A DNA stretch of 64,000 nt from an uncultured Acidobacteriota bacterium (GTDB taxonomy: Bacteria > Acidobacteriota > Thermoanaerobaculia > Multivoradales > JAGPDF01): positions 16,153-80,152 of the forward strand of contig CAWAGZ010000008.1 of assembly GCA_963781755.1 (NCBI GenBank), read 5' to 3'. Within the stretch, counting starts at the first letter, position 1; the number at the start of each line of letters is the position of its first letter. Shown here piece by piece: positions 10,243 to 56,226 of this stretch. Below the pieces are notes generated by a model, which searched no databases, was not told the origin of the DNA, and saw only the letters and a list, made by a program, of their open reading frames with translations. Position numbers and translations under genes: made by a program.

Positions 10243-10258
10243 GTCACACCCGTGTGAC
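10243..10258. promoter_or_regulatory. perfect palindrome GTCACAC-GG-GTGTGAC ~70-85 bp upstream of pstS start; candidate operator
   Basis: Seen directly between the phoU terminator and the pstS start. Half-site TGTCAC resembles Pho-box half sites, but the arrangement is inverted, not direct. Confidence 0.4.
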
Positions 10259-12851: not shown

Positions 12852-14621
12852 TCAGCCGCGGGTCATGGGCAGCAGGACGCGGAAGGTGGAGCCGGTGCCG
12901 GGCTCGCTCTCGACCTCGACTCTCCCCTGGTGGGCCTGGGCGACGTGCTTGACGATCGCCAGCCCGAGGCCGGTGCCGCCCTCCTCGCGCGCCCGCCCCT
13001 TGTCCACCCGGTAGAAGCGCTCGAAGATGCGCGCGACGTGCGAGGCCGAGATGCCGATGCCGGTGTCCACCACCTCGAGCGCGGCCTGGCCCTCCCGCTC
13101 GGCGAGCCGCACCTCGACGCCGCCCCCCGGCCGGTTGTACTTGATGGCGTTGTCGAGCAGGTTGGCGAGGAGCCGCAGGAGCCCGTCCGCGTCGCCCTCG
13201 ACCACCAGCGGGGGGCCGTCCTGGACGCGGACCGTGACCGAGCGGGTTGCCGCGGCGGCGGCGACCATCTCGACCGCCTCGGCGACGATCTCGCGCAGGT
13301 CGACCCGCTCGACGGCCCGGAAGGGCTCCGTCCCCTCCAGTCGCGAGAGGGTGAGCAGGTCGTCGAGCAGGTCGCCCAGCCGGCGGCACTGATCCAGGAT
13401 TCGGGTGCTGAAGCGCAGCGCGGTGTCGCGCTCGTCCACGGCGCCGTCGACCAGAGTCTCGGCGTAGCCGCGGATCGCGGCCAGGGGCGTCTTGAGCTCG
13501 TGCGAGACGTTGGCGACGAAGTCCTTGCGCGTCCTCGACAGCCGCTCGGCCTCGGTGACGTCTCGCGCCACTACGACCAGCCCCTCACCGGCGGCCAACG
13601 AGGAGGAGAGCAGCGTCAGGCTGCGCGGCTCGGGCTCGAGCAACTCGAGCTCGGTCGCGCCGCCGCTCCCGGACTGGAGCGAAGCCGCGATGAGGTCGGT
13701 CAGCCGGGGTTGCCGGACCAGCTCGAGGACGGTCGCGGCGCCGGCGTCGGCGGGCAGGCCGAACAGATCACGAAACGCCGGGTTGACGATCTTCACCCGG
13801 CCCTGCCGGTCGGTGACCAGGACGCCCTCGTTCATGCTCGCCATGGTCGAGCGCAGGTGGTCCCGTTCGGCCTCGACTGCCGCGATCTGCCGCTCGGCGC
13901 GCGTGGCGATGCGCTCGAGCGCCCGCCCCAGGGTCGCCAGCTCGCTCTCGTCCGGGATCTCGGGACGGGCCGAGTAATCGCCCTCGCCGAGGCGGTGCGC
14001 CGTCGCGATGAGCTCCGAGAGCGGCTGGAAGAGGGAGCGCGTCAGCCACCAGGACAACGCCAGGGTGAGCACGGCGGCGACCGCGGCGGAGAGCAGCAGC
14101 ACCCCCCAGAGCCGCCGGCGCAGCGCGCCGAGCGAGCGCAGCGGCAGACCCAGGCGGACGACCGCGGCGCGGCCATCGTCCCGGCGCACGACGCGCGCGG
14201 CGTAGGCGGTCTCGAGGCCCGTCGTCTTGCTCGTGCGGACCGACCGTCCTTCGCCCGATTCGAGCGCCGCGACGACCTCCGGCCGGGTGCGGTGGTTGTC
14301 CATCACGCCGACCTGTTGCGGGGTCCGGTCGCTGTCGGCGACCACGCCGCCGTCGAGCTCGATGACCGTGATGCGGTAGGGGGTCTCGTCGGCGAGCGCG
14401 GTGATCCGCTCCTGGATCGCGGCGTCGGGACGGTCCCCGCCGGGACCGGGCAGCGGAACCGAGGGGGCGACGATCCGCAGCGCGGCCTGGAGCGACTCGG
14501 CTTCGCCGTGGGCGAGGGTCCCTGGCAGCAGGGCGATCGCCAGACCCGCGACCAAGACCAGCGCAGCCGCCGCCGGGATGAGCGGGGCGAGCCGCAGCTT
14601 GGGGGAATAGGGGATCGACAT
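12852..14621 (-). CDS. phoR: PhoR-like sensor histidine kinase: signal/TM, periplasmic domain, HAMP, PAS, HisKA, HATPase
   Basis: ORF-track frame 12852..14774. Start set at Met of MSIPYSPKLRLAPLIPAAAALVLVAGLAIALL at 14621. HisKA H-box VANVSHELKTPL; G-boxes DTGIGI, GGTGLGLAIV. Confidence 0.85.
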   Translation of the reverse strand: MSIPYSPKLRLAPLIPAAAALVLVAGLAIALLPGTLAHGEAESLQAALRIVAPSVPLPGPGGDRPDAAIQERITALADETPYRITVIELDGGVVADSDRTPQQVGVMDNHRTRPEVVAALESGEGRSVRTSKTTGLETAYAARVVRRDDGRAAVVRLGLPLRSLGALRRRLWGVLLLSAAVAAVLTLALSWWLTRSLFQPLSELIATAHRLGEGDYSARPEIPDESELATLGRALERIATRAERQIAAVEAERDHLRSTMASMNEGVLVTDRQGRVKIVNPAFRDLFGLPADAGAATVLELVRQPRLTDLIAASLQSGSGGATELELLEPEPRSLTLLSSSLAAGEGLVVVARDVTEAERLSRTRKDFVANVSHELKTPLAAIRGYAETLVDGAVDERDTALRFSTRILDQCRRLGDLLDDLLTLSRLEGTEPFRAVERVDLREIVAEAVEMVAAAAATRSVTVRVQDGPPLVVEGDADGLLRLLANLLDNAIKYNRPGGGVEVRLAEREGQAALEVVDTGIGISASHVARIFERFYRVDKGRAREEGGTGLGLAIVKHVAQAHQGRVEVESEPGTGSTFRVLLPMTRG

Positions 14622-14699
14622 CGGGGCGGGCGGCGCAGTGTAGCAGCGCCGCGACGGGGCTCCGCGCGGGCTCCGGGCATTCTCCGCAGCGGGTGCGGA

Positions 14700-14790
14700 A
14701 AAGCTTGTCGAAAACCGGTTCCGGAAGCCGCCGGCGCGCGCTCGGCGTGGGTCCCGCGCGCGTTCTGCACCCATTCTTGTGCAGGCGACG
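14700..14790 (-). promoter_or_regulatory. conserved promoter block upstream of phoR: TGCGGAAAAG ... GGGTCCCG ... GCGTTcTGCACcCATTCTTGTGCA (palindrome TGCACC-N6-TGTGCA at ~14766-14783)
   Basis: Near-identical block (24/26 in the core) upstream of the phoB-like gene at 30485-30570. Confidence 0.55.
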
Positions 14791-14950
14791 TAAGCCCCGT
14801 GATGTCAGAGGTTCCGGCCTGGAGATCGCGCCGGTCGTGGACCGGCGCGGGGGCGCTGCTGTGGGGTTTTCCGCAGGGGGCCGCGGCAGGCACCGGATCG
14901 GCGTCGGTTAACTCTCTGCGACAGAGCGACTTGGGCGGGTGGGACCGGGC

Positions 14951-16582
14951 TCAGCGCGGGCGTCGCCGCGAGCGCTCGAGGCCGGGCCGGTACTCGATCC
15001 GGCGGCCGAACACCTTCTCGAACAGGTCCGAGCGGTGGCGCGCCGCGTCCAGCTCGAGCGTGACCTGGTAGGGGGAGAGCACCTCCACCACCACCCGCCG
15101 GCGCCGGGCCAGCGAAGCGTAGAGCTCGACCACGCGCGCGGCGTGCGTCCGGTCGAGCGCGTTGGCGATGCGCAGCAGCGCGCCGAGCGCGAGCACCACC
15201 TGGCGCTGCCAGGGCTCGAGCGCGGCGAAGTCCTCGTGCCGCCCCTTGGGCAGGGCGCCGCGGTGATAGCGGGCCACGTTGGCGACGACCTCGATCTCGC
15301 GCGGATCGAAGGCGTCGAGCTCGGCGCTCGAGATCAGGTAGAGAGAGTGCTTGTGATGGCGTTGGAAGTGGATCGAGTAGCCGACGTCGTGGAGCAGCGC
15401 GGCGTACTCGAGCCACTCGCGCTCGCGGGAGCCGAGGTTGTGAACGGGAGCGGTCAGGTCGAACAGCCTCACCGCGAGCTTCGCCACCTGGCGGGCGTGC
15501 CCGGCGATCGAAGGCGCCCGCTGCGCCAGCTCGGAGACCTGGCGACGACGGACGTTGGCCGGCGTCGCACCGTCGCCCGCGGGGGCGCCCAGGGCTTCGA
15601 GCAGCAGACCCTCGCGCAAGGCCCGGTCGCACAGGTGGAGCCGTTCGACTCCGGCGTGGCGGGCGAGCTCCTCGAGCAGGATCGCGCCAGCCAGGATCGA
15701 ACCGGCGCGCCGGGGACCGACCGCCGGCAGCGCCGCGATCTGGCGGCGCCGGAGCGCGCGCAGCCGCTCCACGACCTCGCCCAGCTCGCGCAGCCGGAGC
15801 TCGCGCAGGCCGCCTGCGGCCAGCCGGCGGTCCCGCCCCGCGAAATGGTCGGCCAGGTCGCCGCAGCACATCGCGGTCCCCGAGGTCGCGATCAGTCGCT
15901 CGACCCGCGCCGGCGCCCGCAGCGAAGAGATCGTCGCCCGGAGCTTGCGGCGCAGACGGTCGATCGAGGCGGTCGCCGGCGGGTCGCCGTCGAGAGCGCC
16001 GGCGCAGCGCAACGACCCCAGGCGAAGGCTGCGCACCGCGCGCAGCTTGCCGGCGCGCGCGGTGCACCACTCGGTCGAGCCGCCGCCGACGTCGACCAGC
16101 ACCGACCAGCCCCTCCCCAGGTCGACCGCGTGCCGCACGGCGCGGAAGACCAGCGCGCCCTCTTCGTTGCCGGTCAGCTTGCGCACCTCGACCCCGGTCA
16201 GGGCGCGGACCTGGTCGAGGAACTCGGAGCCGTTCGACGCCTCCCGGACGGCGCTCGTCGCGACCGCTTCGATCCGGAGGGCGCCCTTGAGCCGGGCCAG
16301 CGTGGTCATCCGCAGCAGCGCCTCGAGGCCGTCGCGCACGGCGCGTTGGGAGAGCGATCCGTGCGCCAGCGCGCTCTTGCCCAGCCGCACCATCTCGCGC
16401 TCGCGGGCGAGGACGCGATAGGCGCCGGCGCCGTCCCCCTCGGCGACGATCATGTGGATCGAGTTGGACCCGATGTCGATCGCCGCCACCCGCTCGCCGT
16501 CGGTCGCGGCGGCCGGAACGGCAGGCGCGGCGCTCCGGGTCGCCCCGGACCCCGACACGGTGCGGGCAGCGCGCTCTCTCAT
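14951..16582 (-). CDS. ppx: exopolyphosphatase / guanosine pentaphosphate phosphohydrolase (Ppx/GppA) with C-terminal HD domain
   Basis: N-terminal VAAIDIGSNSIHMIV, Ppx-GppA fold; HD-like LLHDVGYSIHFQRHHKH. Confidence 0.9.
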   Translation of the reverse strand: MRERAARTVSGSGATRSAAPAVPAAATDGERVAAIDIGSNSIHMIVAEGDGAGAYRVLAREREMVRLGKSALAHGSLSQRAVRDGLEALLRMTTLARLKGALRIEAVATSAVREASNGSEFLDQVRALTGVEVRKLTGNEEGALVFRAVRHAVDLGRGWSVLVDVGGGSTEWCTARAGKLRAVRSLRLGSLRCAGALDGDPPATASIDRLRRKLRATISSLRAPARVERLIATSGTAMCCGDLADHFAGRDRRLAAGGLRELRLRELGEVVERLRALRRRQIAALPAVGPRRAGSILAGAILLEELARHAGVERLHLCDRALREGLLLEALGAPAGDGATPANVRRRQVSELAQRAPSIAGHARQVAKLAVRLFDLTAPVHNLGSREREWLEYAALLHDVGYSIHFQRHHKHSLYLISSAELDAFDPREIEVVANVARYHRGALPKGRHEDFAALEPWQRQVVLALGALLRIANALDRTHAARVVELYASLARRRRVVVEVLSPYQVTLELDAARHRSDLFEKVFGRRIEYRPGLERSRRRPR

Positions 16583-16630
16583 CGGGAATATTGGATCACG
16601 GCCGGGTCTCGGCGCCGTGACGCCCGTGCG

Positions 16631-17623
16631 TCAGGCGCCGCCGGCGAGAAAGGTGACGACGTAGTACGCCAGGGCCGAGACCAGGCCGGCGATCGGAATG
16701 GTCAGGATCCAGGCCCAGACGATGCGGCCGGCGATCCCCCAGCGCACCGCCGAGAGGCGGCGGGTGGCGCCGACGCCCATGATCGCGCCGGTGATCGTGT
16801 GGGTGGTCGAGACCGGGATGCCGCCCAGGGTGGCGCCGATGATGGTCAGGGCGCCCGCCGTCTCGGCGCAGAAGCCGCCGATCGGGTGCAGCTTGGTGAT
16901 CTTCGTGCCCATCGTGCGGACGATCCTCCAGCCGCCGAACAGCGTGCCCATGGCGATCGCGAAGTGCGACAGGAGGATGACCCAGATCGGGACCTCGAAC
17001 CGCTCGAGATACCCGGTGGCCACGAGCAGGCCGGTGATGATGCCCATCGTCTTCTGGGCGTCGTTGCCGCCGTGGCCGAGACTGTAGAAAGCGGCCGAGA
17101 CCAGCTGTCCCTTGCGGAAGAAGCGGTCGATCCGGCCCGGGTGCCAGTGGCGGAAGATCCAGGTCACGGTGATCATCAGGATCAAGCCCAGGACCAGCCC
17201 GAGCACCGGCGCGACGACGATGAACACCAACGGCTTGATCCAGCCGGAGACCAGGATCGCCCCGAAGCCGGCCTTGGCGATCGCGGCCCCGGCGTAGCCG
17301 CCGACCAGGGCGTGGGACGACGACACCGGGATGCCGTAGTACCAGGTGAAGAGGTCCCAGAGGATCGCGCCGATCAGGCCGGCGAGGATGACCTGCTGGG
17401 TGACCAACGACAGGTCGATCATTCCCTTGCCCATCGTCTTGGCGACGTGCGTGCCGAGCACGAAGGCGGCCAGGAAGTTGAAGAACGCGGCCCAGGCGAC
17501 GGCCAGGCGCGGCGACAGCACCCGGGTCGAGACCACCGTCGCGATCGAGTTCGCGGCGTCGTGGAAGCCGTTGAGGAAGTCGAAGACCAGCGCGACGAGG
17601 ATGATGCCGACGAGCCAGGTCAT
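16631..17623 (-). CDS. pit: low-affinity inorganic phosphate transporter (PiT/PHO4 family)
   Basis: MTWLVGIILVALVFDFLNGFHDAANSIATVVSTRVL (GFHDxANS signature), polytopic membrane protein. Confidence 0.9.
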   Translation of the reverse strand: MTWLVGIILVALVFDFLNGFHDAANSIATVVSTRVLSPRLAVAWAAFFNFLAAFVLGTHVAKTMGKGMIDLSLVTQQVILAGLIGAILWDLFTWYYGIPVSSSHALVGGYAGAAIAKAGFGAILVSGWIKPLVFIVVAPVLGLVLGLILMITVTWIFRHWHPGRIDRFFRKGQLVSAAFYSLGHGGNDAQKTMGIITGLLVATGYLERFEVPIWVILLSHFAIAMGTLFGGWRIVRTMGTKITKLHPIGGFCAETAGALTIIGATLGGIPVSTTHTITGAIMGVGATRRLSAVRWGIAGRIVWAWILTIPIAGLVSALAYYVVTFLAGGA

Positions 17624-17639
17624 CGCTCGCGCCGCAGGG

Positions 17640-18293
17640 TCAGGCGTTCTTGATCACCACGTTGCCGAGGACGTGGGTGAAGTCCTTGCACTTGTCGCAG
17701 GCGTCCTCGAGGTCCTGGTAGATCTTGTTCCACTTCATGACCTCGAGCGCGTCCAGTCCGTTGTCCTTGCGGAACAGCGCGCCGAGCGAGGTCAGGTAGA
17801 GGGCATCGGCCTGATTCTCGAGGTCGGAGATGTGGACCATCCCCTCCTGGATCCGCTCCGCGTTGGACAGGTCCCAGATCAGGTGGGTGAGCTCCTCGAT
17901 CTGGCGGCAGAGGTCGCGCAGGATCTCGGCGAACCGGGTCAGCGGCTCCGGCGCGTCGCCGATCTCGAAGAGAACGATGAACTGGGCGATCCCCTCCAGG
18001 TAGTCGAGGGCGTCGTCGACGTCGACCGCGATGGCGCGGATGTCCTCGCGGTCGAAGGGCGTGATGAAAGTGGAGTTGAGCGCCTCGAAGATCCGGCGGG
18101 TGATCTTGTCGCCCTGGTGCTCGACGGCCTTGAGCTCGACCAGCTTGACCTTGCGCTCGGCGACGTCGCGCGCGCGGGCGATGGCCAGGAACAACTCGGC
18201 GGCTTTGACCAAGTTGGCCGAGGCCTGCTCGAGCAGCTCCCGGAAGCGGCCCTCGCGCGGGAGCAGGAAGCGGAGGATCGAAGCGAATCCCAT
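17640..18293 (-). CDS. DUF47/TIGR00153 PhoU-like phosphate-transport regulator, companion of Pit
   Basis: 217 aa, PhoU-like helical protein 17 nt upstream of pit; canonical DUF47-Pit pair. Confidence 0.85.
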   Translation of the reverse strand: MGFASILRFLLPREGRFRELLEQASANLVKAAELFLAIARARDVAERKVKLVELKAVEHQGDKITRRIFEALNSTFITPFDREDIRAIAVDVDDALDYLEGIAQFIVLFEIGDAPEPLTRFAEILRDLCRQIEELTHLIWDLSNAERIQEGMVHISDLENQADALYLTSLGALFRKDNGLDALEVMKWNKIYQDLEDACDKCKDFTHVLGNVVIKNA

Positions 18294-20016: not shown

Positions 20017-22434
20017 TCAGGTGAGCGCGGCCACGGCCTCCGCTTCCGACTCGACCGAGACCGAGGCGGGCGGCGAGCCGAACAGTGCGCTCAGGAAGGC
20101 GTCCCAGCCCCGGTTCTCGGCGCTCCGGCGGGCGGCGCGGCCGAGCACGTGCCGCAACGTGTCGTCGTGCAGCAGCCGCGAGAGGGCGGCGGCCAGGGGC
20201 GCCGCCGCGGCCGCGTCCACCACCAGGCCCTCGCACCCGTCCTCGATCTGCTCGGCCGGCCCCCCCTCGCGGGCGACCACCACCGGCAACCCCGAGGCCA
20301 TGGCCTCGAGCACGGCGTTGCCGAAGGTCTCCGTGCGGCTGGGGAAGACGAACAGGTCGGCGGAGGCGTAGGCGGTCGCCAGCGCGTCGCCGCCGCGCAC
20401 GCCCGCGAAGGTCACCCCCGGACCCGACCGGCGCTCGAGGCCGTCGCGCGCGGGTCCGTCGCCCACCAACACCAGGCGCGCGCCGGGGTGGCTCTCGCGC
20501 GCCCGGGCGAAGGCGTCGAGCAGGACCTCGAGGTTCTTCTCGGGCGCCAGCCGGCCGACGTAGAGAGCGACCGGGCCGCCCTCGACGCCGAGCCCCGGGA
20601 AGTAGTCGCGCCTCCGGCGGTCGGGGTGGAAGCGGTCGGTGTCGACGCCGCGCGGCAGGTGCGCGAGGCGGCCCGGCTCGACGCCGAGCTCGAGCAGCTG
20701 CGCCCGCGAGCTGGCCGAGGAGACCCAGACCCGGTCCATCTGGCCATAGAACCACTTCAGGTAGCCGGCGGCGAAGCCGGCCAGCTTGACGCCGCCGCCC
20801 AGGGCGGCGACGTAGCGCGGGAAGTCGGTGTGGTGGATGCCCACCGCCGGCAGGTCCAGGAGTCGCGCGGCCGCCAGCGCGGCCAAGCCCACCGGTCCGG
20901 GGGTCGACACGACGATCTCGCCGATCTGCTCGCGCTCGACCCACTCGACCACCTCGAGCAGTGGCGGGAAGCTCAGGACGAGCTCCTCGTAGCGCGGCAC
21001 CGGCATCTGCCAGATCGGCGGGAAGTTCTCGAGCTCGAAGTCGGTGCGCGGTGTCGCTGGCAGGCAGGTGAGCACCGTCACCGGGAAGTCGCGCCGGCGG
21101 GCGAGCCCGGCCGCGGTCGCCACCGTGCGCGCGACGCCGTTGACATCGACCAGGGTGTCGGTGGCCCAGACCCGGCGCGGGCTCTTGGCGCGCAACGGCG
21201 CGAGCTCGGGGAAGGCGTCGGCCACCTCGCGGTGGAACGGCTCGTCCTTGTGCTGGAAGCGGAACGCCGCGAGATAGGGCGACGCGGCGACCAGCCCCGT
21301 GGCCAGCGTCGAGAGCGCCGGGAGCGCTGACAGCGGCCGCCCCGCTTCGAGCGCGGCGGCGCCGGCGTCGAGCGAGCGGGCGAGGGCCCGTTGCGCCAGC
21401 CGGGCCGAGCCCTCGAACACCGCCCTCTCCTCCTCCCGGGCCAGCGTGGGCTCCGCGGCCCGCCGCGTGCGAGCGACGATCGCGGCCAGCGGGCGCGGCG
21501 GACCGAAGCTGGGCAGGAAGGCGGCGAGAGCGCGCAGCGACTGGCTCCAGGCGCTGCCCTCCGGGTTGCGTGGATCGATCTCGCCCGCGGCCATTCGCCG
21601 CAGCAGAGCGGCGATCGGGTCGTTGCGCCAGCGCGAGCCGGCGAGAACCTTCTGACGGTAGTAGTCGTGCGCCAGCGCCTGGAAGGCGCGGGCGAGCTTG
21701 AGCGAGGAACCCACCTCGCCGCCCGGGGCGTGGTCGCCGGCGGCCAGACGCGCGAGGTACTCGGAAACCGTGGCGGCCGGCGGCGTCTCGGTCCAGGTCG
21801 TGCCGACGTAGAGGCCGCAGTGGTCGTCGCTGCCGCCGACGAAGCGCTTGATCCACGGCTCCGGTCCCGACGGCTCGAGGCCGTGGCGGTCGGCGAGCTC
21901 GGCGATGCGCAGCGGCGTCAGGGCGTCGACCACCGCGGAGAACAGGGTCGTGGCGCGCGGGTCCCGCGTGCCGTTGACCAGCTCGAAGGTGCGGAACAGG
22001 AGCAGGCAGCGCTCGAGCTGGCCCAGAGTGAGCCGGTCGTCGACGCGGAAGAGCGGGTGGGCCAGAGCGTGCGCGATGCCGCGCTCGCACAGGTAGGCGA
22101 CGAGCGCGTAGAGGTCGCGGCGCAGATCCTGGGTCTCGCGGTGCTCGGCTTCGGTGATTCCCCAGACCAGAACGTGGACCTCGGTCCCATCCTCGGGAAA
22201 CGCGGCGGTGATCTCGCACGACAGGAAGGTGCCGGGCAGGTGCGCGATCTCGAGACCGCCGTCGATCGAATCGTGATCAGTGACGGTGACGAAGTCCATG
22301 CCGCGAGCGCGCGCGATGCGCACGATGTCGAGTGTCTCGGTGAAGCTCTCGGGCGCTCCGATGCGCTCCAGGTACCACTCGCTGGGTCGGTCGGAGCGGC
22401 GGCTGTGGACATGCAGGTCGCAGCGGCTCGGCAT
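20017..22434 (-). CDS. fusion protein: N-terminal PHP (polymerase/histidinol-phosphatase-type metal-dependent phosphoesterase) domain, ~300-aa central region of unknown function, C-terminal GT4 (group 1) glycosyltransferase
   Basis: N-term MPSRCDLHVHSRRSD...VTVTDHDSIDG (PHP His/Asp metal ligands). C-term EX7E-type GT4 motif (FPSRTETFGNAVLEAMASGLPVVV). 805 aa. Confidence 0.8.
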   Translation of the reverse strand: MPSRCDLHVHSRRSDRPSEWYLERIGAPESFTETLDIVRIARARGMDFVTVTDHDSIDGGLEIAHLPGTFLSCEITAAFPEDGTEVHVLVWGITEAEHRETQDLRRDLYALVAYLCERGIAHALAHPLFRVDDRLTLGQLERCLLLFRTFELVNGTRDPRATTLFSAVVDALTPLRIAELADRHGLEPSGPEPWIKRFVGGSDDHCGLYVGTTWTETPPAATVSEYLARLAAGDHAPGGEVGSSLKLARAFQALAHDYYRQKVLAGSRWRNDPIAALLRRMAAGEIDPRNPEGSAWSQSLRALAAFLPSFGPPRPLAAIVARTRRAAEPTLAREEERAVFEGSARLAQRALARSLDAGAAALEAGRPLSALPALSTLATGLVAASPYLAAFRFQHKDEPFHREVADAFPELAPLRAKSPRRVWATDTLVDVNGVARTVATAAGLARRRDFPVTVLTCLPATPRTDFELENFPPIWQMPVPRYEELVLSFPPLLEVVEWVEREQIGEIVVSTPGPVGLAALAAARLLDLPAVGIHHTDFPRYVAALGGGVKLAGFAAGYLKWFYGQMDRVWVSSASSRAQLLELGVEPGRLAHLPRGVDTDRFHPDRRRRDYFPGLGVEGGPVALYVGRLAPEKNLEVLLDAFARARESHPGARLVLVGDGPARDGLERRSGPGVTFAGVRGGDALATAYASADLFVFPSRTETFGNAVLEAMASGLPVVVAREGGPAEQIEDGCEGLVVDAAAAAPLAAALSRLLHDDTLRHVLGRAARRSAENRGWDAFLSALFGSPPASVSVESEAEAVAALT

Positions 22435-22659
22435 CGGTCTCGTCTCCTCGCGGCAGCGGGCCGGAGCCCGGACGGTTCTTCCCGGCGAGCGGCGGACAGC
22501 TGGCCTCCACGCCGGGCCGGGAACACGCTAGGCGCCCGGTGCGGCGGCGGCGTCACCGACGCGCGGCGCCGGGGCGACGTTCGCGAGCTGGCGCGTACCG
22601 TCACCGGCTCGTCGATGCGCCGCCACCGCCCGGTCGGCACCGGGCGATAGAACGCGTCC

Positions 22660-24130
22660 ATGGAGACTCCGACCGCGGTACTCGAGCTCGGCCCTCTGCG
22701 CTGCCTGTCCCTGAATCTGCGACGGCTCGAGAGGTGGCTTTCGGCGCGCGGCGCTGCGCGGCGTCCTCGCACTGTCGGGCGGCGCGGTCCGCGTCGAGGG
22801 CGCGGACCGGCTCGCGGCGGCGCCGGAGCCGTCGATCTTCGCCCTGACCCACCACAACGTCTGGGAGGCGCTGCTCGCGCCCGCGGCGTTGATGGCGGCG
22901 CGCCGCGGCCGCCCGGTCCGGTTCCTCATCGACTGGATGTTCGTCGACCTGCCGTGGACTGGGTGGCTCCTGCGTCGCTTCGCGCCGATACCGGTCTACG
23001 CCAAGCCCGCACGCTTCCGGCTACGCGAGCGCCATCGCCGCGAGCGGCGGCGCGATTCGGCGTTCGACGCCGCGGTGGCGGCGCTCGGCGAGGGTCAGGA
23101 CGTCGGCCTCTATCCGGAGGGACGGCGCAATCCGGATCCCTGGTTGCTCGGCGCGCCGCGCCGCGGCCTGGCGCGCCTGGCGTTGCGCGCGGGCGCGCCG
23201 GTCGTGCCGATCGGCATCGACTTTCCCGCCCGCGACCGGCTCCAGCGCACCCCCCGAGCCGGCCGTCTCGTGCTGCGCGTCGGCGAGCCGCTTTCGTTCG
23301 GGGCGGAGCACGCGGCCTGGCGGGACGCGCCTTCGGGAGGAGAGCGGCGCCGGGTCGAGAAGCGGCTGGGGCCCGAGATCGCCGACCGGGTCCACGAAGA
23401 GCTGGCGCGCCTCGCGCGCAAGGTCTACGTCCGCAGAAGCCGGCCGGAGAAGGAGGCCACGGTGGCGGGGGCGGCGATCGAGAGCGGGCTGTCGGTGGCG
23501 AAGGTCCTGGATCCGGCGATGCGCGAGGCCGCGCTGGGCGTGATCGCGGAGGTCTACGGCGAGGAGAAGCGCTGGCTGGCGGACGCGGCGCCGGAGATCC
23601 CGGTCGATCCGACGGCGGACTCCAGAGTCAGCTGGTTCCTCGCCCGTTCGGCGGGCGAGCCGGTGGGCGTCGTGCGCCTGTCCTACGATCCGCCGCTCGA
23701 GCTGCCGCGGGACTTCGAAGTCGAGATCGACTCCGGGATCGATCTCGAGCGGCTGGCCGCGGGCGGCCGGTTCGTCGAGGTCGGCAGGCTCATGATCCGC
23801 TCGAGCTGGCGCTCGCGTCCGGCGGCCGTCCTGGCGCTGATGCGGTCGGCGCTCGCCGAGGTCGTCGGGCGGGGCTACACCCACCTGTTCACGGCGGTGT
23901 TCGAGGACGACCCGCATTCGCCCTATCGATTTCACACCCGTCAATTGGGTTTCGAGCGCGTCGGCACCCATCGCCACGGCGAGTTGGAATGCGAGAGCCG
24001 CAGGATCCTGCTCGTGCTCGACCTGGCGCGCGCCTGGCGCCGTCTGAGGGCGCGCCGGGCGGCAGTGGTCGGTCACCTGGCGCGCGGTCTCGAGGAGCGA
24101 CTCGAAGGGCTCGCGGTCGCTTCATCGTGA
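22660..24130 (+). CDS. bifunctional acyltransferase (N-terminal PlsC/LPLAT-like O-acyltransferase with HHNVWE box, C-terminal GNAT/OlsB-like N-acyltransferase; OlsF-like). N-terminus unresolved (apparent frameshift or non-canonical start).
   Basis: ORF track calls 22889..24130 (TTG start). The LPLAT domain (LRGVLALSGGAVRVEGADRLAAAPEPSIFALTHHNVWEALL, then EGRRNPD, PVVPIGI) continues upstream in the same frame to ~22715 with no ATG/GTG/TTG. An ATG at 22660 opens a different frame (METPTAVLELGPLRCLSLNLRRLERWLS) that would join with a 1-nt indel near 22740. C-terminal domain carries an OlsB-like VGVVRLSY box. Confidence 0.65.
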
Positions 24131-24206
24131 CGCCGCCGACGCGCCGAGTTGACGCCCGAGGCGCAAGCTCTGGACGCGGCGGAGAAGCGTCCGGAGGCCG
24201 GCGACC

Positions 24207-24743
24207 ATGAACCTCGACACCAGAACCCTCGGACCCCGGCTGCAGGAGCTGGAGGTCGGGCTCTGCCAGCGCGCCGTCCGCATCCAGGAGCGCCGCGCGG
24301 TCCTGGCTTTCTTCCGCACGGTCTCGCGCCTCGGCGACGGCGGGCTCTGGATCGCGTTGGCGGGTTTGCTGGCGGTCGTCGGCGGCGAGCGGACGCTGGC
24401 GACGGTGGCGCGGATGGCGGCGGTCGGCCTGGCTTCGACGGTCGCGAGCAAGCTGCTCAAGAGGTGGGCGTGCCGGCCGCGGCCGTGCACCGTCGCGGCG
24501 GGCATTGCGGCCGGCGCGGCGCCGCTCGATCCCTGGAGCTTCCCCTCGGGCCACACCCTCCACGCGGTGGCCTTCACCGCGGTCGTGGGCGCCGAGCTGC
24601 CGACGCTCGCCCTGCTGCTGTTGCCGTTCACCCTCGCCGTCGCCGCGTCGCGCGTCGTCCTCGGCCTGCACTATCCGAGCGACGTCGCGGCGGGCGCCGC
24701 GATCGGACTGGCTCTCGCCGGCGCGGTCCTGGCTTTCTCGTGA
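24207..24743 (+). CDS. PAP2 superfamily phosphatase (phosphatidic-acid / lipid-phosphate phosphatase type)
   Basis: All three PAP2 motifs: KLLKRWACRPRP (KxxxxxxRP), PSGHT, SRVVLGLHYPSDV (SRxxxxxHxxxD). Membrane protein, 178 aa. Confidence 0.85.
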   Translation: MNLDTRTLGPRLQELEVGLCQRAVRIQERRAVLAFFRTVSRLGDGGLWIALAGLLAVVGGERTLATVARMAAVGLASTVASKLLKRWACRPRPCTVAAGIAAGAAPLDPWSFPSGHTLHAVAFTAVVGAELPTLALLLLPFTLAVAASRVVLGLHYPSDVAAGAAIGLALAGAVLAFS

Positions 24744-25981
24744 ACCCGCGCGTCCTCTTCCTCTCCGACGTCTACTTCCCGCGCGTCAACGGCGTCTCGA
24801 CGTCGATCGGTGTCTTCCGCCGCGAGCTGGCGGCCCACGGCGTCGAGGTCGAGCTGATCGCGCCGGCCTACGGCCGTACCGCCGGTGATGGAGAGGAGGC
24901 GGGGATCACGCGGGTGCCGGGGCGGAGCTTGCCGTTCGACCCCGAGGACCGGCTGGTCGCGGCGCGGCGCATGACCCGGGCGGCCGCGGCCCTGGAGTTC
25001 GACCTGGTCCACGTCCAGACCCCTTTCGCGGCCCACCGCGCGGGAGTCCACCTGGCCCGGCTCCGGCGGGTGCCGTTGGTCGAGACCTGGCACACCGACT
25101 TCGAGCACTACTTCGAGCACTACGTGCGCTGGGTCCCGGCGCCGCTCGCCCGCGCGCTGGCGCGGACCCTGGCGCGCCGCGTCGCCCGGCGGGTGGACCT
25201 GCTCGTCGTGCCCTCGGCGGCGATCGACCGCGCCCTGGCCGCGATCGGCGTCGCGACCCCGCGCGCCGTGATCCCGACCGGGCTCGCTCCGGGCGAGCTC
25301 GGCGCGGGGGACGGCGCGCGCTTCCGCGCCGCCCACGGCATCCCGGCCGACCGCAAGGTGGCGGTCCACGTCGGCCGCGTCGCGCGCGAGAAGAACATCG
25401 GCTTCCTGCTCGAGGCCGCAGACCGGGCGCGCCGCGAGATCCCCGACCTCTTGCTGGTCGTCGCCGGCGAGGGACCGGCGCGCAGCGAGCTCGAGCGGCG
25501 CGCCCGGGAGCTCGGGCTGGGATCGAACGTCTTGTTCGTCGGTTACCTCGGTCGTTGCGGCGAGCTCGCCGACTGCTATTGCGCCGGCGACTGCTTCGTC
25601 TTCGCCTCGCGGACCGAGACCCAGGGCCTCGTGCTGCTCGAGGCGATGTCGCTCGGGGTACCGGTCGTGGCGCTCGCCGAGCAGGGGACGGTGGACCTGC
25701 TCGTGGCGCGGCGCGGCGCCCTGGTGCCGGCAGCGGAGCCCGGCGACTTCGCCGCCGCGATCGTCCGCCTGCTGCGTGACCCCGCGCTCGCCTCCCGCCT
25801 CGGGCGCGAGGGACGCGAGGTCGCGGCGGAGTGGTCGGCGCCGGCGCTCGCCGGCCGTCTGGCGGCCCGCTACCGGGAGCTGCTCCCGGCACCGCTAGGG
25901 GCCGGAGAGGGTGTGGTGGGCGCGCCGGGCGCCGCGGTGGCAGGCGAGCTCCGTCACGTCGCCGTCACCGCCCGGGACTAG
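24740..25981 (+). CDS. GT4 (group 1) glycosyltransferase
   Basis: GTG start at ~24740 overlapping the PAP2 stop (GTGA). VNPRVLFLSDVYFPRVNGV N-terminal GT-B fold; EX7E-like FASRTETQGLVLLEAMSLGVPVVA. The long ORF-track N-terminal extension (from 24149) overlaps PAP2 and is rejected. Confidence 0.85.
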   Translation: MNPRVLFLSDVYFPRVNGVSTSIGVFRRELAAHGVEVELIAPAYGRTAGDGEEAGITRVPGRSLPFDPEDRLVAARRMTRAAAALEFDLVHVQTPFAAHRAGVHLARLRRVPLVETWHTDFEHYFEHYVRWVPAPLARALARTLARRVARRVDLLVVPSAAIDRALAAIGVATPRAVIPTGLAPGELGAGDGARFRAAHGIPADRKVAVHVGRVAREKNIGFLLEAADRARREIPDLLLVVAGEGPARSELERRARELGLGSNVLFVGYLGRCGELADCYCAGDCFVFASRTETQGLVLLEAMSLGVPVVALAEQGTVDLLVARRGALVPAAEPGDFAAAIVRLLRDPALASRLGREGREVAAEWSAPALAGRLAARYRELLPAPLGAGEGVVGAPGAAVAGELRHVAVTARD

Positions 25982-25993
25982 ACTCCGGAGGCG

Positions 25994-28207
25994 ATGACGT
26001 CCGAGACGACGGCCCTCGGGGGCCCGGCCGGGGAAGTTGGAGCATCCGCCCGCGAGCCCGGCGGCGCCGCGGCGGACGGTGGTCCGGGGGCCGGCGCGGA
26101 ATCGCCGTTCTTCGACCGCGAGCTGTCCTGGCTCGAGTTCAACCGGCGCGTGCTCCACCAGGCCGAGGACGACTCCCTGCCGCTGCTCGAGCGGCTGAAG
26201 TTCGTCGCCATCTTCGGCGGCAACCTCGACGAGTTCTTCATGAAGCGGGTGGGGGGCCTCAAGCTGCAGCTGCTGTCCGGCCGTTCGACCCGGTCGCCGG
26301 AGGGCCGCACCCCGGCCGAGCAGCTCGACGCTGTCGCCGCGGCGGTGCGGCCGCTGGCCGACCGCGCCCGGGAGGTGCTGGTCGGCGACCTGCTCCCCCT
26401 GCTGCGGCAGCGGGGCGTCGAGCTGGTGAGCTGGCGCGAGCTGGGACCCGAGGAGCGTCGCTGGGCGCGCGATTACTTTCTGCGCACGGTCTTCCCCATC
26501 CTGACGCCTCTCGGTCTCGACACCTCGCACCCCTTCCCGTTCATCTCCAACCTGTCGCTGTCGCTGGCGGTCGCGATCCGCAGCCCGGCGTCGAGCGAGG
26601 TGCGGTTCGCGCGCGTCAAGGTCCCGCCGTCGCTGCCGCGCTGGGTCCAGCTGCCGGAGGGCAACCGGTTCCTGGCGCTCGAGGACCTCATCGCGCAGCA
26701 TCTGGAGAAGCTCTTCCCCGGTCTCGAGCTGCTCGAGACCTACGCCTTCCGGGTCACCCGGGCGGCCGACGTCGAGCGTCACGAGGAGCCGGCCGAGGAC
26801 CTGCTCGAGTCGATCCAGGAGGAGCTGCGCGAGCGCCGCTTCGCCGCGGTGGTGCGGCTGGAGGTGGTGCCCGAGATGCCGGCGTGGATGCGCGCCCTGC
26901 TCGCCGACGAGCTCGAGATCGAGGCCACCGATCTCTACGAGACCCGGCCGCCCCTGGCCGCCCGAGACCTGTTCCAGCTCGCCGCGTTGCCCGTGCCGGG
27001 TCTCGTCGAGCCGCCCTGGCAGTCGGTGACGCACCCGCGCCTGGCGCCGGGCGCCGACGGGCGCGAGCCCGACCTGTTCCGCGTCCTGCGCGGAGGGGAT
27101 CTCCTGGTCCACCATCCCTACGACTCGTTCACGAACTCCGTCCAGAGGTTCCTCCAGGTGGCGGCAGAGGACCCGGCGGTACTCGCCATCAAGCAGACCC
27201 TGTACCGGACCTCGCGCAGCTCGCCCGTGGTGCGGGCGCTGATCGAGGCGGCCGAGCGCGGCAAGCAGGTGGCCGTGCTCGTCGAGCTGCGGGCGAGCTT
27301 CGACGAGGCGCGCAACATCGAGTGGGCCGAGGCGCTGGAGCAGGCGGGAGCTCACGTGGCCTACGGCGTGGTCGGGTACAAGACGCACGCCAAGGTCTCG
27401 CTCGTGGTGCGTCAGGAGAGCGACGGACTGCGCGCCTACAGCCACTTGGCGACCGGCAACTACAACACCGACACGGCGGAGCTCTACACCGACATCGGGC
27501 TGTTCACCTGCGATCCGGAGATCGGCGACGACAACGCCCAGCTGTTCAATCTCCTGACCTCCGGCCACCTCGCGGACCAGAGCTTCTCGAAGATGCTGGT
27601 CGCGCCGGTCAACATGCGCCGCGGGATCCTCGAGCGCATCCAGCGCGAGATCGAGCACGTCCGGGCCGGCAGGGGCGGACGCATCCAGGCCAAGATGAAC
27701 GCCCTGGAGGACGCGGAGATCGTCCTCGCGCTCTACGACGCGTCGGCCGCCGGAGTCGAGATCGACCTGCTGGTGCGCGGCGTCTGCCGGCTGCGCCCTG
27801 GGCTGGCCGGGCGGAGCGAGAACGTCCGGGTGATCTCGATCGTGGGCCGCTTCCTCGAGCACGCGCGGATCACCTGCTTCGGCAACGGCGGCGAGCCCGA
27901 GTACTTCATCGGATCGGCGGACTGGATGTCGCGCAACCTCGATCGCCGGGTCGAGGCGATGGTTCCCGTCAACGCGCCGCCGCTGCGCCGCGAGCTGCAG
28001 GAGATCCTCGACCTCCAGCTGGCCGACAACCGCAACGCCTGGGAGCTCGGGCCGGACGGCTCCTGGCGGCGCAAGCTCCCGGCTCCGGGCGAGCCCGAGT
28101 GCGCCAGCCAGCGAGTCCTGATGGAGCGGTCGCGCGCCCGCGTCGCCCGCGTCGAACGCTTCCCGGCCCCTGGCGACGAAACGCCCGGCGGGTCGCCCGT
28201 GCGCTAG
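25994..28207 (+). CDS. ppk: polyphosphate kinase 1
   Basis: 737 aa; N-domain FFDRELSWLEFNRRVL, PLD-like HKD motifs (GYKTHAKVSLVV, …), full PPK1 architecture. Confidence 0.95.
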   Translation: MTSETTALGGPAGEVGASAREPGGAAADGGPGAGAESPFFDRELSWLEFNRRVLHQAEDDSLPLLERLKFVAIFGGNLDEFFMKRVGGLKLQLLSGRSTRSPEGRTPAEQLDAVAAAVRPLADRAREVLVGDLLPLLRQRGVELVSWRELGPEERRWARDYFLRTVFPILTPLGLDTSHPFPFISNLSLSLAVAIRSPASSEVRFARVKVPPSLPRWVQLPEGNRFLALEDLIAQHLEKLFPGLELLETYAFRVTRAADVERHEEPAEDLLESIQEELRERRFAAVVRLEVVPEMPAWMRALLADELEIEATDLYETRPPLAARDLFQLAALPVPGLVEPPWQSVTHPRLAPGADGREPDLFRVLRGGDLLVHHPYDSFTNSVQRFLQVAAEDPAVLAIKQTLYRTSRSSPVVRALIEAAERGKQVAVLVELRASFDEARNIEWAEALEQAGAHVAYGVVGYKTHAKVSLVVRQESDGLRAYSHLATGNYNTDTAELYTDIGLFTCDPEIGDDNAQLFNLLTSGHLADQSFSKMLVAPVNMRRGILERIQREIEHVRAGRGGRIQAKMNALEDAEIVLALYDASAAGVEIDLLVRGVCRLRPGLAGRSENVRVISIVGRFLEHARITCFGNGGEPEYFIGSADWMSRNLDRRVEAMVPVNAPPLRRELQEILDLQLADNRNAWELGPDGSWRRKLPAPGEPECASQRVLMERSRARVARVERFPAPGDETPGGSPVR

Positions 28208-29223
28208 CCGGCAGCCTCGCCGGACTGGCCGGCCACGGCGAGAGCGTCCACCAGTCCGGCGATTCCGGACTCGAGCGCCGCCGCCTCCGGGGCCTCCTCG
28301 GCCAGCCAGCGTTCCGCGAACTCGGCGGCGAGCCGGTCGCGGCGTTCGGCGATCCGGCGCGCCAGCGCCGAGCGGCCGGCGCGACCGCCGGGCAGCCGCG
28401 GCCGTCGGCTCCCCCCCGTGGCGGCCAGAACCCGGCTGCGCTCGCCCTCCGCGGCCTCGGCCGCGAGCTCGGCGGCGAGCACCGCGAGATCGTTGGCGGC
28501 GCCGAGCAGGTCCTGGAGATGGCGCAGCCGCGCGACCACGGCGCGGGCGGCCGGCAGCCGCGGCGTCACCGGCTCGAGCAGGTAGCGCAGTCGCTTGGCC
28601 GCGATGCGGACGCGGTGGATCCGGACCGGCTCCGGGGACTCCCGCGCGAGGTCCAACGCGGCGAGCAGCGCGTCGGCGTGGCGGGCGAGCTGGGCGCCCA
28701 GGGCGGCGCGGAACGGACGCTCGGGCTCGGTCTCTCCGTCGAGGCGGATCTCGACCCGCCAGATGCCGAGCGTCTCGCGCAACCCCGCGATCAGCCCGTC
28801 GAGCTCGCCCAGCCTCTGCTCGCGGACGTGACGGTAGACCTGTTCGCGGCGGTCGCTCAGCCGGCCGGCGAGGACGCCGGCCGCACGGCGCTCGCTGCCC
28901 TCGGCGCCGTCGGCGAGCTGGGCGAGCAGAGCCGCGCCCACCTCGGCGTCGCGCCCGGGGTTGGTCGCCGCCGCCAGGCGGCGCACCCGGCGCCGGAGCT
29001 TGCGTCCCACGGCGTCGCCGAGCTCGGGGCGGAAGGCGCGCAGGTCGCTGCGCAGGCGGCGCAGGGCCACCCGAAGGTCGTGCAGAGCCTCCGGGTCCCC
29101 GCCGCGCTCGAGCGCGAGCCGGGCCTGCTCGGCCCGCGCGACCTCGGCGAGCGCGATCCGGCGCGCCGCCTCGCCCGCCGGACGCTCGAGTAGATCGCGC
29201 GGCAGCGCGGGCTCGCGGATCAC
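28204..29223 (-). CDS. CHAD domain protein (conserved histidine alpha-helical domain; polyphosphate-associated)
   Basis: Repeated HDLRVALRRLR / HRVRIAAKRLRY CHAD signatures; 3' end overlaps ppk1 3' end by 4 nt (convergent). Confidence 0.8.
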   Translation of the reverse strand: MIREPALPRDLLERPAGEAARRIALAEVARAEQARLALERGGDPEALHDLRVALRRLRSDLRAFRPELGDAVGRKLRRRVRRLAAATNPGRDAEVGAALLAQLADGAEGSERRAAGVLAGRLSDRREQVYRHVREQRLGELDGLIAGLRETLGIWRVEIRLDGETEPERPFRAALGAQLARHADALLAALDLARESPEPVRIHRVRIAAKRLRYLLEPVTPRLPAARAVVARLRHLQDLLGAANDLAVLAAELAAEAAEGERSRVLAATGGSRRPRLPGGRAGRSALARRIAERRDRLAAEFAERWLAEEAPEAAALESGIAGLVDALAVAGQSGEAAG

Positions 29224-29720
29224 GGCGCGAGGTCCCGCGCCTGACCGGCGGTCAGGTGCCAGAGGAGACGTCCGCCCCCGGCCCGGATCGAAGTCCGGAA
29301 ATCGACCAACGCGGCGCCGCCCTTGCGCATCGCCGCGATCGACTGCGCCCGGCCGGTGACCATCAGTCCTTCGAGCCGGGAGAGCCCGGGCTCGTGGCCG
29401 ACCAGCGCGATCGCGGCGAGCTCCCGGCGTTCGGCAAGGAAGCGCAGCAAGGGCGCGCCGCCGCCGCCGGGCGCGAGCGCCCCGAGATCGACGATCTCGG
29501 GATGGCGGGGGTGGGCGTCGCGCAGGAGCTCCGCGGTCTGCCGGGCGCGACGCAGGGGACTCGTCGCGATCAACGCCAGCCCCGGAACGTGAGCCGAGAG
29601 CCCGCGGGCGCCGCGTCGGAAGCGACGCTTGCCCTCGGGCGTCAACGGCCGGGCCCGGTCGTCGTCGGGAGAGGCGCCGCGCTCCGCGGCGATGGCATGA
29701 CGCACCAACAGCACGCGCAC
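29220..29720 (-). CDS. histidine-phosphatase superfamily protein, SixA-like phosphohistidine phosphatase
   Basis: LVRHAIA (RHG-type motif), PLTPEG, GHEP; 166 aa; 4-nt overlap with CHAD gene. Confidence 0.75.
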   Translation of the reverse strand: MRVLLVRHAIAAERGASPDDDRARPLTPEGKRRFRRGARGLSAHVPGLALIATSPLRRARQTAELLRDAHPRHPEIVDLGALAPGGGGAPLLRFLAERRELAAIALVGHEPGLSRLEGLMVTGRAQSIAAMRKGGAALVDFRTSIRAGGGRLLWHLTAGQARDLAP

Positions 29721-29760
29721 GGCGCGCGACGCTAGCAGAGAGGTGTGACGGTTCGCGGCG

Positions 29761-30441
29761 TCAGGCGCGCAGGCGGTAGCCGACGCCGATCACGGTCTCG
29801 ATCCGGTCGGCTTCGGCGCCGAGCTTGCGGCGCAGCCGGCGCACGTGGGTGTCCACCGTCCGACTGTCGACGTCCTCGGCGTATCCCCACACGTCCGAGA
29901 GCAGCCGCGAGCGGGTCTGGACGCGTCCCTGCCGTTCGAGCAGGACCTTGAGCAGGCGGAACTCGGTCGCCGTCAGGGTGACCTCCTTGCCCCGCGCCTC
30001 GACCCGGTGCGCCGATGCGTCGAGCCGGAGGCCACCCGCCTCGATCACGTCGCCGGCGTCCTCTCCGGCGTGACGGCGCAGGACCGCCTTGATCCGGAGC
30101 ACGACTTCGCGTGGGCTGAACGGCTTCGGGATGTAGTCGTCGGCGCCCAGTTCGAGTCCCACGATGCGGTCGACCTCCTCGCCCTTGGCGGTGAGCATGA
30201 CCAGGGGGACCCGGGCGGTCGCCGGGTCGCGCTTGAGCAGGCGGGTGAGCTCGAGACCGTCCAGGCCCGGGAGCATCAGATCGAGCACGATGAGGTCGGG
30301 CGGCTGGCGCCGGATGGCCTCCAGGGCGCCGTCGCCGCGACGCAGGACCTCGACCCCGAAGCCCGCCTTCTCGAGGTTGAACTGCAGCACTTCGGCGATG
30401 TCGGGCTCGTCCTCGACGACGTAGATCCGCTGTTCGGCCAT
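29761..30441 (-). CDS. phoB: OmpR/PhoB-family two-component response regulator (PhoB-like)
   Basis: REC domain (VVEDEPDI…DLIVLDLMLPGLDG…K) plus winged-helix trans_reg_C (…RTVDTHVRRLRRKL…GVGYRL); 226 aa. Confidence 0.85.
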   Translation of the reverse strand: MAEQRIYVVEDEPDIAEVLQFNLEKAGFGVEVLRRGDGALEAIRRQPPDLIVLDLMLPGLDGLELTRLLKRDPATARVPLVMLTAKGEEVDRIVGLELGADDYIPKPFSPREVVLRIKAVLRRHAGEDAGDVIEAGGLRLDASAHRVEARGKEVTLTATEFRLLKVLLERQGRVQTRSRLLSDVWGYAEDVDSRTVDTHVRRLRRKLGAEADRIETVIGVGYRLRA

Positions 30442-40695: not shown

Positions 40696-41403
40696 TCAGC
40701 CCGGTTCGCTCTCGGGGCTCTCGCCCGCCACGACCAGCACGAACTCCCCCTTGAGCGCGGGGCGGGCGCCGAGCTCCGCGCGCAATCCGCCGAGCGTGCC
40801 GCGCAGCACCTCCTCGTGCAGCTTCGTCAGCTCGCGCGCGACGGCGGCCGGGCGCTCCGGTCCCAGCTCGGCGATCGCGTCGTCGAGGCTGGCGAGAAGA
40901 CGGTGGGGAGACTCGAAGACCACGAGGGTGTGCCCGAGCGCGCCCAGCCCGGCCCAGAACCGGCGCCGCCGGCCGCTCTTGGGCGGTGAGAAGCCCGCGA
41001 AGGTGAACGGGTAGGGCGGCAGGCCCGAGACCACCAGGGCGGCGAGGATCGCCGAGGGCCCCGGGATCGGCTCGACCCGGATCCCCCGCGCCGCCGCTTC
41101 CCGGACCAGCGGGAAGCCGGGGTCCGAGACCAGGGGCGTGCCGGCGTCCGAGGCGACCGCCACCGTCTTGCCCGCCTCGAGAGCCGCGATCAGCTCCGGC
41201 ACGCGCCGCCGCTCGTTGTGCTCGTGGAGCGAGACCAGGGTCTTGGCGAGGCCCAGGTGACGCAGCAGCTTGCCGGTGTGACGGGTGTCCTCGCAGGCGA
41301 CCAGGTCGGCCTCGGCCAGGGCGCGCGCGGCGCGCGGCGAGAGGTCCTCGAGATGGCCGATCGGGGTGGCGACGAGCAGGAGCCGGCCGGGCACGGAGGG
41401 CAT
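40696..41403 (-). CDS. rsmI: 16S rRNA (cytidine1402-2'-O)-methyltransferase RsmI
   Basis: LLLVATPIGHLEDLSPRA…EDTRHTGKLL…YEGPHRL-type TP-methylase motifs; 235 aa. Confidence 0.9.
   Translation of the reverse strand: MPSVPGRLLLVATPIGHLEDLSPRAARALAEADLVACEDTRHTGKLLRHLGLAKTLVSLHEHNERRRVPELIAALEAGKTVAVASDAGTPLVSDPGFPLVREAAARGIRVEPIPGPSAILAALVVSGLPPYPFTFAGFSPPKSGRRRRFWAGLGALGHTLVVFESPHRLLASLDDAIAELGPERPAAVARELTKLHEEVLRGTLGGLRAELGARPALKGEFVLVVAGESPESEPG

Positions 41404-53327: not shown

Positions 53328-56225
<2,898 letters not shown>

Positions 56226-56226
<1 letters not shown>

Follow-up and report, generated by a model that had tools for sequence, protein, structure and literature searches.

A PlsC–FeeM-type acyltransferase-synthase gene with a probable one-base assembly indel, and its family with a conserved H(X4)E motif near phosphate genes

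The stretch of DNA analyzed here, called the window, comprises 64,000 nucleotides from the genome of an uncultured Acidobacteriota bacterium of the class Thermoanaerobaculia (assembly GCA_963781755.1, contig CAWAGZ010000008.1, positions 16,153 to 80,152). On its plus strand it carries a gene, referred to below as the acyltransferase-synthase gene, that joins a PlsC/LPLAT-type O-acyltransferase domain to a FeeM-type N-acyl amino acid synthase domain (Table 1). The main reading frame of this gene contains TTG 22889 and is open upstream to a TGA at 22712–22714, with no ATG, GTG, or TTG between 22715 and 22888. An ATG at 22660, four codons past a stop, belongs to the neighboring frame (translation METPTAVLELGPLRCLSLNLRRLERW...). 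Both facts had been noted in a preliminary description of the locus and were confirmed on the sequence. A codon-usage scan trained on the long genes of the window detected coding signal in the main frame from position 22736, 51 codons before the first canonical start, while the deposited annotation starts at the internal ATG 22892 and yields a protein of 412 amino acids (aa; P0001). In our reading, the missing start codon is most likely the result of a one-base assembly indel in an otherwise intact gene starting at ATG 22660.

The evidence comes primarily from three related assemblies, L001, L083, and L084, that share the ATG with the window. A four-way DNA alignment revealed that the window contains an extra base that is absent from all three; the window is one base longer than L001 and L083, and L084 is one base shorter than those two, in a G run. 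The +1 frame break suspected in the preliminary description thus exists, though not where it had been placed, in a GC tract at 22745–22763 (gcgcgcggcgctgcgcggc). The junction lies at 22731–22735 (CTCGAGAGGTGGC), ~15–25 nt upstream of that tract, and an arginine pair kept in homologues (GGFRRAALR) falls in the main frame from 22739, which confines the junction to 22731–22738. If one base is removed at 22732, the product has 489 aa and contains ...LEGGFRR..., the same as in P0051, the intact 489-aa protein that L083 encodes from the same ATG (MDTPTAVLELGPLRCLSLDLPRLEGGFRRATLRGVL...). The same N terminus is joined in frame to the remainder of the gene in L001 (P0022), in L083, and in 30 homologues: among 34 two-domain relatives, 30 begin with M-x(5-6)-L-x-LDPxRALxLELPRLxGxxRRxxLRxLLALSxGxVRVEG, corresponding to the frame of ATG 22660 followed by the main frame. 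A single spurious base at 22731–22735, within a purine/G run, would therefore shift the frame of a 489-aa two-domain gene, and the start of the deposited annotation at ATG 22892 would be a consequence of that shift.

Table 1. Features of the acyltransferase-synthase locus and of related loci; positions refer to the window unless another locus is named (ORF, open reading frame; GT4, glycosyltransferase family 4)
Feature	Position	Strand	Basis or detail
Glycosyltransferase, 805 aa, divergent; GT4 domains in C-terminal half	20017..22434	-	Pfam
Probable true 5' end of the acyltransferase-synthase gene, ATG 22660 and 24 codons	22660..22732	+	METPTAVLELGPLRCLSLNLRRLE; frame upstream of the break; translation
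Frame break, a nucleotide that three related assemblies lack	22731..22735	+	In GAGAGGTGG; four-way DNA alignment
Main reading frame, to TGA 24128-24130	22733..24130	+	ORF translation
PlsC/LPLAT-type O-acyltransferase domain, PF01553	22787..23218	+	Pfam E 8.5e-15; residues 25-168 of the 22715 frame
Motif I, H-H-N-V-W-E, H(X4)E for H(X4)D	22850..22867	+	Sequence; 34-sequence alignment
YPEGRRN, counterpart of LPLAT motif III	23111..23131	+	Aligned to FPEGTRS of 5KYM
FeeM-type N-acyl amino acid synthase (GNAT-fold) domain, PF21926	23543..23977	+	Pfam E 4.3e-9; residues 277-421 of the 22715 frame
PAP2-family lipid phosphatase, directly downstream	24207..24743	+	PF01569, E 6e-21; conserved in closest clade
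Second GT4 glycosyltransferase, 413 aa	24740..25981	+	L083 gene calls, tblastn synteny, Logan contig L082
Polyphosphate kinase 1	25994..28207	+	Pfam labels on syntenic L083; JGI member named polyphosphate kinase
Break site in the window			CTCGAGAGGTGGCTTTCGG
Break site in L001			ERZ25039495 contig_104918, 99.5% identity to window; CTCGA-AAGTGGCTTTCGG
Break site in L083			ERZ25039533 contig_18705 (3.87 Mb), 96% identity to window; CTCGA-AGGGGGTTTCCGG
Break site in L084			ERZ25039539 contig_19398, 96% identity to window; CTCGA-GGG-GGATTTCGA
Separate adjacent acyltransferase and synthase genes	L004 2140-2170; L006 10705-10735; L050 9839-11343; L060 9788-11337		

As we scanned the window for coding potential, we identified two more frame jumps without an intervening stop or start. 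The first affects a VWA-domain gene (33745 to 31942, minus strand) that has an extra C at 32923/4 in comparison with L083, where the ortholog is intact and 600 aa long; the downstream fragment in the window matches TIGR03436, and the deposited annotation retains only a 275-aa fragment (P0053). The second is found in the glycine dehydrogenase gene gcvP (53328–56226, plus strand), with one extra base at approximately 55229–55236 near ATCGATCGTCTCC: the fragment 53328–55229 corresponds to positions 1–613 of TIGR00461 (939) and the fragment 55231–56223 to positions 615–939. Each of the three breaks adds a single base, and one of them sits in a housekeeping gene. A fourth suspected break, at ~41490, was rejected as the gene there has its start at 41403 (MPSVPGRLLLVATPIGHL). 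Indels also affect the related assemblies. Within 6 kb, L001 shows another six of one base each, and two of these divide the acyltransferase-synthase gene into three ORFs; in L083, ppk contains an extra base and the PHO4 gene is split; and L084 has two further insertions within the acyltransferase-synthase gene. Flye-style contig names and a metagenome contig of 3.87 Mb suggest that these assemblies are probably based on long reads. Given the two other +1 breaks in unrelated genes of the window, the indels of the related assemblies, and the absence of the extra base from three close relatives, an assembly error, which was among the readings offered in the preliminary description, explains the data best. 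Since the contig has an indel in approximately every 20 kb, its other short or split genes are equally suspect.

Some observations weigh against an assembly error. The extra base lies among two substitutions within 13 nt in comparison with L001, one of which, at 22721, puts an R in place of a mostly conserved P; a real variable site would look alike. Moreover, three of the four related assemblies (the window, L001, and L084) carry interruptions of the gene, each at another position, a scatter that could reflect relaxed selection. It is on these grounds that the extra base may be seen as a genuine strain mutation, leaving a recent pseudogene or an N-terminally truncated product in a family perhaps decaying in the population. 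Consistent with this, the strains do vary, with 8 synonymous, 10 nonsynonymous, and 5 intergenic differences between L001 and the window; the break site itself is variable among all four relatives; L001 has an S for the near-invariant P of YPEG; an in-frame stop occurs in the same domain in locus L003; and the Logan contig L082 (ERR11571143) reproduces the window with 100% identity over 23780–25974. That contig, the only independent one identical to the window, starts at 23780, however, short of the break, and the same kind of +1 break in two other genes within 64 kb, one of them the housekeeping gcvP, as well as the indels in other genes of all the related assemblies, argue against this reading. 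The ratio of nonsynonymous to synonymous substitution rates (dN/dS) between the repaired window gene and L083 is 0.22 (0.16–0.62 for the neighboring genes), which places the acyltransferase-synthase gene under purifying selection, and the remaining 1.4 kb of the frame are fully open. We thus consider a genuine mutation unlikely. Three repaired versions of the acyltransferase-synthase protein and one repaired VWA protein were absent from a collection of 15 billion proteins, and exact-sequence look-ups of P0001 and of the 805-aa glycosyltransferase matched no contig; the break is thus spanned by no independent assembly of precisely this strain.

Two other explanations leave the sequence as it stands. 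In a programmed +1 frameshift similar to that of prfB, a Shine–Dalgarno-like GAGAGGUGG with CUU U after it would shift ribosomes out of the ATG frame into the main frame. The arrangement GAGAGGUGG-CUU-U at 22729–22743 superficially resembles that of prfB, and a shift there would give ...LERWLRRAAL and a product equal in length to the homologues. Against this, the 30 homologues and the three near-identical assemblies are either in frame at the site or broken elsewhere, the CUU precedes the sense codon UCG with no stop or evidently slow codon, and no motif is common to the three +1 breaks of the window. As neither the prfB-like arrangement nor the requirement for a shift is conserved in the orthologs, we rejected the candidate and regard programmed frameshifting, also raised in the preliminary description, as effectively excluded. 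Alternatively, the sequence could be correct and translation start inside the main frame, at a noncanonical ATC 22715 or a CTG, or at TTG 22889 or ATG 22892, the last being the start used for P0001. The gene calls of four relatives (P0023, P0024, P0027, and P0032) begin at the equivalent of residue ~25, and a short N terminus may thus be tolerated. Yet a start at 22889 or 22892 loses the H(X4)E motif together with ~75 residues at the beginning of the PF01553 match, which is ~140 residues long, 22715–22888 offers no canonical start, and the conserved ATG 22660, which follows a stop by four codons, is common to L001, L083, and L084. An internal or noncanonical start appears highly improbable for these reasons and the suggestion found no support. 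With the assembly indel as the preferred reading, the deposited 412-aa P0001, which lacks the catalytic H(X4)E box, should be replaced with the frameshift-corrected 489-aa product.

We then considered what the repaired gene encodes. The window protein scores 55.2 bits for PF01553 against a cut-off of 23 and 36.8 bits for PF21926 against a cut-off of 27, and both families were found in all 31 family members scanned. The solved structure best matching the N-terminal domain is the Thermotoga PlsC 5KYM (E 1.4e-7 in PDB profile match, top Foldseek E 1e-7), and the C-terminal domain has a Foldseek match to FeeM 2G0B (E 1.3e-7; target-normalized TM-score 0.67) at 17–19% identity. The NCBIfam models include no equivalog for the acyltransferase-synthase protein, and the PlsC model TIGR00530 gave 25.8 bits against a cut-off of 102.95. 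PF19576 was not found in any of the 31 members at E ≤ 1, while PF13444 was found at this level in 29 of them, with a best E-value of 3.2e-5; its scores of 19.3 bits in the window protein and 18.3 in P0051 remain below the gathering score of 22.4. The two-domain layout given in the preliminary description, an O-acyltransferase followed by a GNAT-type N-acyl amino acid synthase, therefore stands, but the C-terminal domain is of the FeeM type (PF21926) and not of the OlsB type. In the AlphaFold2 model of the ortholog P0051, two folded domains are connected by a disordered linker (residues 261–274), and the mean predicted local distance difference test score (pLDDT) is 84. Blockwise, the mean pLDDT is 66 for residues 1–10 and at least 92 for residues 11–60, and the model places a strand at 7–9 and helices at 12–16 and 26–38. 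By these values and elements, the residues lost to the frame break seem to belong to the folded structure of the acyltransferase domain.

The catalytic box of the acyltransferase domain reads HHNVWE in place of the usual H(X4)D, as the preliminary description had pointed out, but it is not an oddity of a single gene. H46 and E51 (numbered in the 22715 frame) do not vary across the alignment of 34 sequences, and a scan of GTDB representative genomes found motif I to be (N/H)H-x4-E in 71 of 72 species-level loci and H-x4-D in one. The lone H(X4)D relative is L064, with NHESRRD. In motif III, E135 and G136 are invariant and P134 nearly so. Since 71 of the 72 species-level relatives share it, the H(X4)E motif is, as judged from the alignments, a hallmark of this acyltransferase subfamily rather than a degenerate box. 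In LpxM of Acinetobacter baumannii, E127 of the HX4E/D motif is needed for activity (PMC6286764). The sequence comparison suggests that Glu and Asp of motif I may be interchangeable in the acyltransferase subfamily.

To place the gene among its relatives, we searched 5.8 billion protein clusters and found 34 full-length two-domain relatives with 47–69% identity and lengths of 474–563 aa, mostly from metagenome-assembled genomes (MAGs) of Thermoanaerobaculia and other Acidobacteriota. An exhaustive profile search of 1.84 billion representative proteins returned 176 proteins at E ≤ 1e-30, only ~7 of them full-length fusions and the others acyltransferases of ~260–285 aa or synthases of ~215–235 aa. 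In the genome loci, the acyltransferase and the synthase were always adjacent or fused, with the acyltransferase first; in Prosthecochloris vibrioformis DSM 260 and Imhoffiella purpurea AK35, for instance, they are separate ORFs in different frames. As the pair forms separate adjacent genes in most relatives, the fusion in the Thermoanaerobaculia clade of the window is, by this comparison, derived. It looks like the outcome of stop-codon loss: L004 and L006 have an in-frame stop and, three codons beyond it, the conserved ...AM... start at the position where the fused proteins read Q/R-E-x-A-M. Separately, the Acidobacteriota MAG locus L003 has an in-frame stop within the acyltransferase domain at ~10244–10246 (WLVR*IDP, with Q in relatives), which could be a nonsense mutation or a base error.

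In the window, the acyltransferase-synthase gene sits between two groups of phosphate-homeostasis genes. One of these (12852–18293) contains a histidine kinase, Ppx/GppA, a PHO4 transporter, and a PhoU-like protein; the other (25994–30441) consists of PPK1, a CHAD protein, a histidine phosphatase family (His_Phos) protein, and an OmpR/PhoB-type response regulator (Response_reg and Trans_reg_C). The order of the 805-aa divergent GT4, acyltransferase-synthase, PAP2, GT4, and PPK1 genes is confined to the closest clade, L002, L003, L013, L044, and L083. More broadly, among the 64 loci that span at least 12 kb, 27 have PstS, PstC, PPK1, PPK2, Ppx, PHO4, or PhoU within 10 kb, a raw count with no formal background. 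Prosthecochloris has the synthase after the acyltransferase, then a porin gene and those for PstS and PstC; in Imhoffiella, the pair directly follows a PPK2 gene.

The divergent glycosyltransferase gene and the intergenic region next to it showed a few further features. The N-terminal 430 aa of the 805-aa protein (MPSRCDLHVHSRRSD...) have no Pfam match at E ≤ 0.1, and an HVH motif in this half looks PHP-like by eye. L084 lacks ~600 bp at ~3077–3111 (equivalent to 21940–22540 in the window), including the 5' end of this gene, which is there called as 670 aa, and part of the divergent intergenic region; the gap could be a deletion or a misassembly. A direct repeat, CGTCACCG(A/G)C, occurs at 22551–22563 and 22599–22611 between the divergent GT4 and acyltransferase genes; the two copies are spaced by 48 nt and might be a regulator site. 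A repeat search of the intergenic region gave only short GC-rich matches, and a scan of 22380–22900 for sigma-70 promoters and terminators found nothing.

By analogy with OlsB/OlsA, GlsB/GlsA, and OlsF (PMC12971839, PMC11631085), the FeeM-type C-terminal domain would N-acylate an amino acid using an acyl carrier protein-bound, probably 3-hydroxylated, fatty acid, and the PlsC-type N-terminal domain, with His-Glu for His-Asp, would attach another fatty acid by an ester bond to the 3-hydroxyl group of the first chain. This would yield an acyloxyacyl amino-acid lipid free of phosphorus, made when phosphate is limiting. The proximity of phosphate-homeostasis genes in 27 of the 64 loci is what suggests a phosphate-limitation pathway, and the gene probably serves the synthesis of such lipids during phosphate shortage; the PAP2 and GT4 genes next to it point to glycolipid synthesis in parallel in the lineage of the window. 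Several points speak against this function. The family is known from sequence and predicted structure alone; the linkage to phosphate genes was counted without a background control and does not extend to the most distant relatives (L061–L081); and, to our knowledge, FeeM-type enzymes make N-acyl amino acids only, not membrane aminolipids. Even so, a FeeM-type synthase paired with a PlsC-type O-acyltransferase near pst, ppk, and ppx in several phyla is a testable candidate for aminolipid synthesis, and cultured carriers exist in Prosthecochloris vibrioformis DSM 260, Imhoffiella purpurea AK35, and Thiococcus pfennigii. Literature searches retrieved no description of a PlsC–FeeM fusion, which is weak evidence of novelty, and nothing relevant on ornithine lipids in green or purple sulfur bacteria.

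OlsF is a bifunctional ornithine/lysine lipid synthase; known OlsF enzymes include Spro_2569 of Serratia proteamaculans, Fjoh_0833 of Flavobacterium johnsoniae, and VC0489 of Vibrio cholerae, and we take the OlsB-type N-acyltransferases to be members of PF13444. OlsF is a single polypeptide with the O-acyltransferase at the N terminus and the N-acyltransferase at the C terminus (PMC12971839), and the repaired frame and the intact ortholog P0051 have the same layout. Likewise, VC0489 is induced by phosphate limitation (PMC12186959, PMC12971839), which the position of the window gene among phosphate-homeostasis genes matches. The domain families differ: the N terminus of OlsF is PF19576 and not the PF01553 of OlsA/PlsC, and its C terminus is highly similar to OlsB (2024 review, PMC11631085), whereas the protein studied here combines PF01553 with PF21926, a separation that is drawn from Pfam families and from statements in two reviews. 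The proteins also differ in length, with ~490 aa here and 581 aa for VCA0646. The label "OlsF-like" of the preliminary description is consequently apt for the layout but not for the domain families, given the lack of PF19576 among the 31 members and the subthreshold PF13444.

The OlsB/OlsA and GlsB/GlsA systems resemble the family in their two-step logic, N-acylation followed by O-acylation by an LPLAT enzyme, and in using two separate genes, similar to the adjacent pair in most relatives; OlsA also shares PF01553 with the N-terminal domain. They differ in that the N-acyltransferase here is FeeM-type and not PF13444-type as in OlsB/GlsB, the acyltransferase precedes the synthase, and motif I is HX4E. 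The C-terminal domain passes the gathering score of the FeeM family and has FeeM as its best solved-structure match within the GNAT fold, but FeeM-type enzymes are stand-alone while the synthase domain here is fused or adjacent to an LPLAT. With PlsC, the 1-acyl-sn-glycerol-3-phosphate acyltransferase (5KYM), the family has in common PF01553, the fold, and the PEG(T/R)R motif III; motif I is HX4D in PlsC and HX4E here, and with a TIGR00530 score of 25.8 against a cut-off of 103, the protein is not a PlsC ortholog. The late acyltransferases of lipid A, LpxL and LpxM, belong to the same LPLAT superfamily and may have a Glu in motif I (HX4E/D), but they represent another Pfam family with another substrate and are a precedent only for a working His-Glu motif.

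Judged by its sequence, then, the system is an OlsF-like arrangement in which the parts are of the OlsA/PlsC and FeeM types, the His-Glu motif is conserved, and there is a linkage with phosphate-homeostasis genes. We tentatively raise the possibility, in which our doubt outweighs our confidence, that the PF01553 HX4E and FeeM-type pair constitutes a fourth pathway for acyloxyacyl amino-acid membrane lipids, in addition to OlsBA/GlsBA, OlsF, and OlsHI, induced by phosphate limitation and used in Acidobacteriota, green and purple sulfur bacteria, and others. FeeM-type enzymes have not been reported to feed an O-acylation step, and such a route would, if real, answer the question of whether FeeM-type N-acyl amino acids ever become O-acylated membrane lipids (PMC11631085).

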